Positions 19,364 through 19,865 of a stretch of DNA of 64,000 bases are shown piece after piece (the stretch's first letter is position 1; each line of letters starts with the position of its first letter). The position numbers and the translations under genes were made by a program. The notes beneath the pieces are model-generated. The model did not search any database. It had not been told where the DNA came from and was given only the letters and a program-made list of their open reading frames with translations. The stretch is from a phage. Location: sequence record NC_094493.1. One strand, given 5' to 3'.

Positions 19364-19865
19364 ATAAAGAATATAACTAAAATAACTAAATAATAAAAAT
19401 AAAAGATCTAGTACTTATGGTACTAAGTACATATACTTAACTTATGTAGAATATACTAGATCCTAAGTACCATGTTTTAAAATTATTACTTACTATAGGT
19501 AGTGTCGGCCCTTCATTGGCACTCGCCTACGAGGGGCGAGATGCCGGGCCTCCTTGGTGCACACAATAACAGAAGTGCATACATGCAGGTCTGTTAACAT
19601 GTGTGGGAGCGAAGCGATAGCGCAGGCCAAAGGCCGAGCACTGATGTGGACCACCGACGAAAGCTTGCCAGCGCCGTAAGGAGTCGGTTGAGAGTCTCCC
19701 GCGCGAGCTTGGATGAAGTTTATGTGTGGAAACTGACAAGAAGGCCCCTAAATCGCTCCACAGCTATATAAACTATACCAGGTAATGCAATCGCACCAGT
19801 TTGATAGAAAAGCTCGTTACAAAGTGATACAGTGAGTTTTTCTATAACTTGAAGAGGAGGCGGCT

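Follow-up and report, generated by a model that had tools for sequence, protein, structure and literature searches.

A GC-rich block of ~270 bases in the genome of an rV5-like Escherichia coli phage can be firmly identified, by comparison of sequences, as a modular, multi-helix non-coding element that folds from the + strand and represents a previously uncatalogued family. In the sequence collections searched, this family is confined to phages of the genus Vequintavirus and to plasmid-like elements of ~13.5 kb from E. coli, and comparison of the aligned sequences reveals that its helices are preserved by compensatory change. The folded molecule is most likely RNA, transcribed together with the flanking genes.

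The stretch of DNA that was analysed (64 kb, hereafter the window) comes from an rV5-like E. coli phage, a myovirus of the genus Vequintavirus, as judged from the nucleotide match of the 701 bases around the block. The block itself recurs in 118 phage records (88-100% identity), all of them rV5-like Vequintavirus. The original prediction, in which an abruptly GC-rich segment at 19500-19745 was proposed as a candidate structured RNA, was correct about the composition: the G+C fraction is 0.58 in 19500-19699 and 0.54 in 19600-19799, compared with 0.315-0.40 upstream of the block and ~0.40-0.44 in the downstream coding DNA. The end of the segment was placed too early, the element reaching ~19773. 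The surroundings of the block are as follows.

Before the 116-aa gene, in annotated relatives: RNA ligase on the opposite strand, then polynucleotide kinase, then phosphoesterase.
18856-19206, + strand: 116-aa winged-helix protein of the replication-initiator type, directly upstream (PHROG, Pfam).
19280-19363, + strand: four 21-bp iterons, ACTGTCCGTGATACGGACACT (Tandem Repeats Finder: period 21, 4.0 copies, score 110).
19364-19501, no strand assigned: AT-rich spacer with palindromes (G+C 0.315 over 19300-19499).
19502-19773, + strand: the GC-rich non-coding block, ~270 bases.
After the repeat region and before ORF192: a 659-bp gap with no generally annotated gene; small ORFs are called within the block by several annotators.
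19866-20444: ORF192 (192 aa), 3' of the gap, followed by small ORFs and a tRNA cluster.
21744-22556: seven tRNA genes (ARAGORN; Rfam tRNAs at 21.7-22.6 kb), ~2 kb from the block.

The 116-aa protein is annotated in related phages as ‘transcriptional regulator / replication initiation protein’. It matches replication initiation PHROGs (phrog_12838, E = 2.5e-80; phrog_8102; phrog_428) and aligns with the Pfam family HTH_36 (E = 2.3e-5) at 24.5 bits, just below the curated cut-off of 25. The iteron array is annotated as repeat_region in several phage records, and the spacer that follows it contains the one exact match to the E. coli oriC 13-mer GATCTnTTnTTTT in the 64 kb, both strands considered (19396-19408, - strand). 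No cluster of DnaA boxes was detected near the block. The combination of iterons, an AT-rich stretch and an initiator-type gene is that of an iteron-type origin, and an origin is predicted here; the phage encodes its own primase/helicase and polymerase. The block lies on the strand of the flanking genes, in the phage and the plasmids alike, and heads a rightward transcription unit that leads into the structural genes, the terminase and structural genes starting ~3.7 kb downstream. ORF192 has no match in Pfam and, among the PHROGs, matches only a family of unknown function; when distant phages were sought through this protein, it turned out to be restricted to Vequintavirus, and scans against Pfam and PHROG suggested no function for the other ORFs downstream of the block.

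The only ORF previously recognized in the block, of 70 aa on the minus strand, had been considered an artefact of the GC content. Five ORFs of 31-70 aa actually overlap the block, and the dismissal extends to all of them, none being conserved or coding-like. In 13 phage sequences, the variable sites within the longest + strand ORF (56 aa) number 4, 12 and 9 at the first, second and third codon positions, respectively; the longest open frames vary from phage to phage and are broken in some, and the indels are of 18-21 nt. The lack of codon-position bias, the shifting open frames and the indels indicate that the block is non-coding. No conserved reading frame with an excess of third-position changes, as expected of a coding sequence or a decayed gene, was found.

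The + strand of the block has an MFE of -103.2 kcal/mol (z = -2.8, with 1 of 200 dinucleotide shuffles as good), and the - strand scores almost as well (z = -2.7 against dinucleotide shuffles), so that folding energy alone is weak evidence. The MFE of the whole block favours the + strand in 17 of 29 sequences and the - strand in 9 of the 14 phages. Consensus folding of the phage-only alignment with RNAalifold, at about -73 (+) and -75 (-) kcal/mol, did not recover the core stem, the variation within the genus being too low. On the + strand, the phage block is divided into the following domains.

19507-19550, + strand: Domain 1, a bulged hairpin (outer stem GGCCC/GGGCC, inner stems GGCA-CUCGCC / GGCGAG-A-UGCC).
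19560-19605, + strand: Domain 2, a long hairpin with a dispensable tip (CACACA/UGUGUG and UAACAGA/UCUGUUA; MFE fold).
19605-19640, + strand: Domain 3, GGGAGCG-AAGC-GAUA-GCGC and a GGCC-AAA-GGCC hairpin (read from the sequence).
19641-19709, + strand: Domain 4, the conserved core of 69 nt, which begins with AUGUGGACC and ends with GAGUCUCCCGCGC.
19653-19658 with 19683-19688, + strand: the covarying stem of Domain 4, ACCGAC/GUCGGU.
19718-19773, + strand: Domain 5, stem(s) GUUUAU..UGUGGA / UCCACA..AUAAAC with the loop motif RCCCCUAAAU.

The stem of Domain 4 encloses an invariant GAAAGCUUGCCAGCGCC, a CC-GNAA-GG hairpin (19674-19681) and GGAG, and GAGUCUCCCGCGC follows after the stem. Phages and plasmids alike conserve the RCCCCUAAAU motif of Domain 5. 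Sequence variation lends no support to Domain 3 or to the phage stem of Domain 5. In a divergent phage contig (L006), Domain 2 reads GACAGC/GCUGUU, with one A-U pair replaced by C-G and with one G.U. The tip of this domain carries disruptive changes in two phages and has lost 18-21 nt in the Murica-type phages, in which the closing stem CACACAU/AUGUGUG can still form. Among the four helices initially picked out by eye, covariation backs the first, GGCACTCGCC/GGCGAG-A-TGCC (19518-19545), and none of the other three. GGCC-AAA-GGCC is present at 19625-19635, and so is TGCAC/GTGCA at 19557-19580, the latter in a part of the block that has been lost from some phages. The fourth, proposed as GGAGTC/GAGTCTCC, shrinks to the 4 bp of GGAG/CTCC (19680-19683 with 19696-19699); in Domain 4, a possible 4-bp pseudoknot GGAG/CUCC fits all sequences and shows no covariation.

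Sensitive nucleotide search of complete E. coli genomes yielded partial matches to the block, in two pieces of 84-85% identity, on four small plasmids; no chromosomal match was found among all complete E. coli genomes. The plasmid database returned the same four plasmids and one further small plasmid, CP148565. These plasmids are circles of 13.2-13.7 kb, a fifth record, of 39.6 kb, being a trimer of that unit, and further copies came from Logan and metagenome contigs. When viral, metagenome and species-representative genome collections were scanned for exact patterns, the block was recovered only in Vequintavirus phages and 13-15 kb elements; the matches L007-L040, L044, L048 and L076 from these scans lie in coding or high-GC DNA and were rejected as chance. 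The plasmid block likewise stands 3' of iteron-like dyad repeats, which vary by plasmid, and the order of iterons and block, as well as their orientation, is the same in phage and plasmids; in most plasmids, the two are separated by a G-rich tract, not an AT-rich stretch. The plasmid Rep alleles are 25-100% identical to each other. The Rep-like proteins weakly match phrog_428 and HTH_36, and one of them gives a weak winged-helix alignment with the 116-aa phage protein (E = 7e-4).

The plasmid versions of the block, 310-415 nt long, consist of hairpin cassettes in series; the boundary of each is UGUGUGGG, which closes the module by pairing with a CCCAC(A) close by. The cassettes are present or absent in varied combinations, even between near-identical plasmids. 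Two plasmids carry a copy of the phage Domain 1, and the others have a different leader hairpin. In ~40% of the plasmids sampled, the core is of a second type (type 2), in which the scaffold is kept (AUGUGGAG, a 7-bp stem, UCCGGAU/AUCCGGA, and, in some, the tail GGAGUCUCCCGCGCG) and the internal loop is different. No type 2 core was found in the phages of the database, and the core type shows no association with Rep allele or clade. In its first part, Domain 3 of the phage is similar to the opening of the type 2 core of some plasmids, GGGGAGCGUAGUGC-GAUA-GCAC, which makes the phage block a mosaic of modules that occur in different plasmids.

The 69-nt core is 84-85% identical between phage and plasmids, compared with ~65% nucleotide identity for the best shared gene, and the block is the sole strong nucleotide match of the plasmids to the window and to a further 100 kb of a complete phage genome; a 35-nt match at 31509-31543 of the window, inside a phage ORF, was dismissed. 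The phage genes that flank the block have no homologues in the plasmids. Searched with a covariance model of the core, the window yields one copy, as does every type 1 locus examined from the putative satellites (92.6-97 bits, E from about 1e-22 to 2e-21), and a further 100 kb of phage genome yields none. A second GC-rich block of the window, 21020-21250, was considered as a paralogue and rejected, the core model detecting no second copy in the window; it is not common to the plasmids.

The comparative alignment envisaged when the block was first noticed did uncover compensatory changes, with two helices 99-100% paired and five double substitutions. In 13 distinct sequences, the Domain 4 stem is 100% paired and 3 of its 6 pairs are changed on both sides, one of them with a G.U intermediate. 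The stem is ACCGAC/GUCGGU in the phages, GCUGCC/GGCAGC in the plasmids and GCCGAC/GUCGGU in L006, so that the path A-U, G.U, G-C includes a G.U state actually seen in that contig; when the partners are slid by 1-3 columns, pairing falls to 12-55%. The 15 pairs of Domain 1 are 99% paired in 7 distinct sequences (34-48% in the slid controls); plasmid NZ_CP020521 carries two double changes here, both from G-C to U-A. Taken together, Domains 1 and 4 differ between phage and plasmids at 10 sites that make 5 compensatory pairs and at 6 loop or linker sites, and no pair-breaking difference was found in these two domains. The plasmid cassettes behave in the same manner: in two hairpins, 12 pairs are 100% paired and 6 of these are changed on both sides. 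In the plasmid Domain 5 helix, ACUCAYA/URUGAGU, pairing is complete (100%) at the six inner positions, and the variation goes entirely by way of G.U on the + strand, at four pairs, one of which follows the path C-G, U.G, U-A. The G.U states would be A.C mismatches on the - strand, which identifies the + strand as the one that folds; this asymmetry is seen on the + strand only, and G.T in single-stranded DNA would look alike. The number of independent events is small because most of the phage-plasmid covariation comes from one deep split, the diversity sampled being that of one phage genus and one E. coli plasmid family.

The pattern of substitutions brings close to exclusion the explanation of the block as a non-functional GC-rich remnant, either a decayed gene or captured foreign DNA, with hairpins formed by chance. 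The folding z-score, modest and alike on both strands, and the small ORFs called here by annotators are what such a remnant would show, but it would not be expected to accumulate five double substitutions that preserve pairing, with no disruptive change in the two shared domains, or to keep its core so much better conserved than any shared gene. The 4/12/9 distribution over codon positions, the broken ORFs and the lack of a match on any E. coli chromosome also argue against a remnant. A decayed coding sequence in particular, the outcome that would have undermined the original prediction, is contradicted by preserved pairing in the absence of a codon-position pattern.

Covariation, G.U intermediates, GNRA-type loops and the lack of a codon pattern thus bear out the part of the original prediction that concerns a conserved, folded, non-coding element. 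The RNA nature of the element is a separate matter, since a folded single-stranded DNA would leave the same kind of covariation, and neither a sigma-70-like promoter nor an intrinsic terminator was matched in 19150-19900. A weak -10-like TACTAT can be seen by eye at 19491-19496; a T7-promoter-like ACTATAGG at 19492-19499 was dropped as not kept among the phages. Some loops are of the GNRA type (GUAA/GGAA, GAUA) or UUCG, and many cassette loops are of 3 nt. RNA appears the likelier because G.U pairs are common and serve as intermediates, GNRA-type and UUCG loops are present, and the covarying stem carries a large invariant internal loop.

The principal alternative for the chemistry of the element, and an unlikely one on balance, is that the block works as folded single-stranded DNA, in the form of an array of single-strand initiation signals (like the G4-/phiX-type ssi, RSF1010 ssiA/ssiB or the sso of rolling-circle plasmids) that would be bared by melting of the adjacent origin and recognized by the phage primase/helicase or by a host primase. 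The block directly follows the iterons and the oriC-like 13-mer, its orientation to the iterons is fixed in phage and plasmids, and the phage encodes a primase/helicase and polymerase of its own. Many of the stems are of 5-7 bp with 3-nt loops, the sequence GCGAAGC, which forms a mini-hairpin of high stability in DNA, occurs in the phage block, and a DNA strand folded at an origin would yield equal covariation. Elements of this class are orientation-specific clusters of hairpins near plasmid origins, variable in number, modular and interchangeable, a property that would suit the turnover of the cassettes. However, at some pairs G.U(T) is the commonest state and at others the usual intermediate, which RNA tolerates better, and ssi and sso signals act as DNA, whereas the G.U-rich helices of the block and its GNRA-type and UUCG loops favour RNA. 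The large invariant internal loop on a covarying stem resembles an RNA-protein site. The block, at 270-410 nt and with that loop, is also larger and more elaborate than a typical ssi.

If the molecule is RNA, it matches none of the catalogued classes. The original prediction could not match it to tmRNA, RNase P RNA or a known ribozyme, and this assessment agrees with the absence of matches from both Rfam and ARAGORN: no Rfam family reached its gathering threshold in the block, and ARAGORN detected no tRNA or tmRNA inside 19500-19780. Rfam 15, which covers tmRNA, RNase P RNA, SRP RNA, 6S, ribozymes and riboswitches along with ToxI, CRISPR-DR, GOLLD/ROOL and Y RNA, returned only the tRNAs at 21.7-22.6 kb when the whole window was searched at gathering thresholds. 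With E <= 10, the best match in 19200-19900 was rli43, at 20.7 bits against a threshold of 100, and the plasmid versions gave nothing relevant at either gathering or permissive thresholds. An SRP-RNA-like CCGGAAGGAGGCAGC in the plasmid core was rejected for lack of a match to SRP RNA in Rfam, the covarying stem pairing its GCAGC otherwise. The block shares with GOLLD and ROOL a GC-rich, highly structured, non-coding character and a location in a phage genome near tRNA genes (~2 kb here). In contrast to these RNAs, it is much smaller, shows no match to them even at permissive E-values, and is restricted to one enterobacterial phage genus and the putative satellites. The heptamer TGTGTGG is over-represented in the window (20 copies compared with 10.4 expected); 2 copies lie in the block, without concentration there, and the heptamer was rejected as a site specific to it.

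An RNA could also act in trans by binding, as a decoy or sponge, a host protein of defence or regulation or else a protein of the phage, in which case the plasmids would keep the block to help or to rob the helper. Variants of this explanation make the block an antitoxin mimic akin to pseudo-ToxI or a mimic of a CRISPR repeat. A precedent exists in PhiTE, an rV5-like phage whose plasmid-related RNA mimic of an antitoxin changes through recombination and the expansion of its repeats (PMC3475682). The likeness extends to the non-coding nature of the locus, the phage subfamily, this mode of evolution and the plasmid-borne counterpart. The fast gain, loss and swapping of cassettes in the plasmid arrays is reminiscent of an arms race. 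The segment 19692-19720 is the best match in the window to the E. coli I-E CRISPR repeat, at 20 of 29 positions, the next best reaching 17.

Nevertheless, a role in trans seems improbable, on a par with the single-stranded DNA alternative. ToxI and pseudo-ToxI consist of tandem, near-identical 36-nt repeats beside a toxin gene or mimicking the partner of a toxin, whereas the block has no tandem near-identical units of 34-36 nt and no match to ToxI or any other Rfam family, and phage and plasmids have no partner gene in common. Tandem Repeats Finder detects no array within 19500-19775, and the hairpin units of the plasmids are unequal in sequence and length; ToxI and pseudo-ToxI were accordingly rejected. 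A CRISPR-repeat mimic or RNA anti-CRISPR was discarded as well, as the CCCCGC/GCGGGG stem of the repeat is lost and the plasmids diverge exactly there, after CCCGCGC. A CsrA sponge was set aside, GGA motifs being sparse and located outside the cassette loops. Beyond these variants, the flanking phage genes without plasmid homologues and the downstream ORFs without a discernible function provide no partner for a trans-acting RNA, and such a role leaves the fixed place of the block beside the iterons unexplained.

The plasmids that carry the block are probably plasmid-like satellites of rV5-like phages, judging from their gene content, which combines helper-related morphogenesis genes with the absence of a complete virion gene set. 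The annotated genes encode a major capsid protein, a Dit-like baseplate protein, a tail-completion/neck protein, a 700-aa tape measure, a small HTH protein and a Rep-like HTH protein of 284-306 aa; no terminase or portal gene is annotated in them. By tblastn, four of the plasmid proteins have diverged homologues in the window.

29753-30721: capsid (MCP) homologue, 23% identity to the plasmid protein.
32433-32855: neck homologue, 45% identity to the plasmid protein.
38648-40366: tape measure (TMP) homologue, 25% identity to the plasmid protein.
41141-41764: Dit homologue, 50% identity to the plasmid protein.

The plasmid capsid family is tight (82-99% identical) and found in E. coli only. Its main cluster has 441 members, nearly all on contigs of 13.4-14.3 kb, and tblastn produced no match to this capsid in 50,697 phage records and none in IMG/VR. 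No publication that describes these plasmids was found in the literature.

The lack of annotated terminase and portal genes invites the explanation that the block is the pac region of a headful-packaging phage, which the plasmids carry to be recognized by the terminase of the helper. Vequintaviruses are indeed circularly permuted headful packagers (PMC8407724, PMC13211470), as is PhiTE (PMC3475682). The block is the only well-conserved nucleotide sequence common to phage and plasmids, and it opens the rightward structural-gene unit, ~3.7 kb before the terminase genes. Compensation of intrastrand pairing is not expected of a duplex site bound by the small terminase, however, and the block is neither in nor beside the small-terminase gene. 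Moreover, no pac or cos site is known to be an array of hairpins, and the phage-like core is absent from the type 2 plasmids. Overall, a pac site appears distinctly improbable, more so than action in trans or as single-stranded DNA. The cos piracy of P2/P4 and cos/pac piracy of PICI/SaPI resemble the present case, with a divergent helper and satellite that have one short cis element in common, and the shared element in those systems gives the satellite access to the helper machinery. The differences are that cos and pac are duplex DNA at or near terminase genes, without an intrastrand fold, whereas the block is a folded strand beside iterons, and that the helper here is virulent and the putative satellite a plasmid.

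The explanation that we rank first, tentatively and well short of an even chance, is that the block is a cis-acting, origin-adjacent element, probably an RNA, that is used by the phage machinery and copied by the satellites. Conservation far above that of any shared gene, in elements that need the helper machinery, suggests that the element is read by a phage-encoded factor, and the fixed order, iterons and then block, favours a role in cis tied to replication. The element would act beside the predicted origin as an origin-proximal transcript or as a priming or loading signal, and the covarying stem would offer the invariant internal loop, GAAAGCUUGCCAGCGCC-GNAA-GGAG, for recognition by a replication factor encoded by the phage. 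The plasmids would retain their own initiator and iterons and copy the handle, so that the machinery of an infecting phage may amplify them, and the amplified plasmids would then be packaged. A broader proposal, possible but less probable, sees in the block the first example of a new class of structured, modular RNA ‘handles’ (or hairpin arrays): a virulent phage would tag its genome beside the origin with such a fold for its replication or packaging machinery to read, and a widespread family of satellites borne on plasmids would have copied and diversified the handle to hijack the phage.

Several observations fit the cis-acting replication element poorly. No sigma-70-like promoter or intrinsic terminator flanks the phage block, the MFE of the whole block fails to separate the strands, and the many 3-nt cassette loops suit DNA hairpins at least equally; all three, as well as the small number of independent covariation events, weigh on an RNA in this role. 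On the plasmid side, the ~40% of sampled plasmids with a type 2 core lack a phage partner, the core type is independent of the Rep allele, the turnover of cassettes between near-identical plasmids is odd for an essential part of an origin, and the spacer between iterons and block is in most cases G-rich instead of AT-rich.

The closest parallels to an origin-adjacent RNA are ColE1 RNA II and the T4/T7 R-loop origins, which are likewise non-coding multi-hairpin stretches that adjoin an origin, with co-oriented transcription and conservation of the fold instead of the sequence. Compared with these, the origin-like region of the phage is of the iteron type, with its own initiator-like protein, and the phage yielded neither a promoter nor an RNase H site or hybrid-forming tract. 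The block is not similar to them in sequence or through Rfam, and it is common to a virulent phage and plasmids.

The block would give a phage genus much employed in E. coli biocontrol and phage therapy a structured element that is absent from the catalogues, and the plasmids look like a family, so far undescribed, of plasmid-like satellites that depend on a virulent phage of E. coli. If the element does act in cis at the origin, it marks the replication origin or another key cis site of rV5-like phages, which to our knowledge has not been mapped. If satellites do copy such handles, helper-satellite piracy would proceed via RNA structure rather than a duplex DNA site. The helper-satellite pair is a ready genetic system, in which the covarying stem of the 69-nt core can be mutated and restored, and which could show what, in its own DNA or RNA, a virulent phage recognizes and by what means a satellite takes advantage of this.

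A further feature lies just outside the block.

19781-19797, no strand assigned: imperfect palindrome GGTAATGCAATCGCACC, recognized from the alignments as the flipped form of GGTGCAATTGCATTACC.

In the plasmids, GGTGCAATTGCATTACC stands 3' of the block, and the phage palindrome is possibly a double-stranded operator.

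The small circular elements of E. coli that share the block with the phage form a family 13.2-14.3 kb in size, and they encode diverged homologues of the capsid, neck, tape-measure and Dit proteins of the window phage, together with a Rep-like HTH_36 protein and iterons. Non-coding DNA makes up about 2.3 kb of each element; no terminase or portal gene is annotated on them. The main cluster of their capsid proteins contains 441 member sequences. The loci and the related window genes are as follows.

L004, L054, L055, L056, L041, L043, L061 and L064-L075: element loci (plasmids and metagenome or Logan contigs)
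NZ_CP020521, NZ_CP035869, NZ_CP178698, CP148565 and NZ_CP043822: E. coli plasmids among these loci
Window 29753-30721, 32433-32855, 38648-40366 and 41141-41764: phage genes related to element proteins

Probably, these elements are satellites of rV5-like phages, plasmid-like in form and so far undescribed. One element record is a trimer, the copies of which are non-identical.

Some of the small plasmids carry, on the same scaffold, a second kind of core (type 2), with the stem UCCGGAU/AUCCGGA and an internal loop unlike that of the other core.

L064, L065, L067, L070, L071 and L075: carriers of the type 2 core (e.g. L075:2560-2990, minus strand)

This core is absent from every phage in the database, and among the small plasmids there is no link between the Rep allele and the core type. 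The plasmid arrays are led by a hairpin, GCCTAAAGAG-loop-CTCTTTAGGC, in which the 9-nt loop is reversed in orientation between plasmids (L005:1403-1431 versus L064:2683-2747, minus strand); flips of this kind arise inside inverted repeats, through recombination or template switching. The plasmid blocks are followed by GGTGCAATTGCATTACC, and the phage block, immediately past its end, by the flipped form of that sequence, GGTAATGCAATCGCACC (window 19781-19797), an imperfect palindrome that could be a duplex operator.

Window 19280-19501, 3' of a gene for an initiator-type winged-helix protein, is an origin-like module in which four 21-bp iterons are followed by an AT-rich spacer with nested palindromes; at 19396-19408 (minus strand) the spacer includes an exact oriC-type 13-mer, unique in the window. 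Within the block, 19692-19720 is the top window match (20/29; the runner-up scores 17) to the type I-E CRISPR repeat of E. coli; the hairpin of the repeat is not kept there, and the plasmid versions diverge at the counterpart of this segment.

Further along the window lie three more features.

21020-21250: second GC-rich non-coding block (G+C about 52%)
21309-21647: ORF near this block
22213-22311: tRNA-like gene of 99 nt, within the tRNA cluster

The second block is predicted to fold into multiple hairpins (z = -2.0), has no Rfam match at gathering thresholds and is not found in the small plasmids; a near-consensus, sigma-70 promoter-like sequence (TTGACA-17-TAAAAT, ~21250-21278) lies directly 3' of it. 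A 95.7% identical copy of the second block is present in CP057073.1; although catalogued as an E. coli 'plasmid' of 137.6 kb, this record is actually an rV5-like phage genome. The tRNA-like gene scores just 35.5 bits with the Rfam tRNA model and has an abnormal anticodon loop, with a 4-base anticodon, 'atcc', according to ARAGORN; its counterpart is labelled tRNA-OTHER or tRNA-Lys in other records, and it could be an intron-containing or frameshift-suppressor-like tRNA.

In the block region, E. coli rV5-like phages are matched at 97-100% identity by 18 'Campylobacter phage' records (MG0656xx), whose host labels therefore look doubtful.
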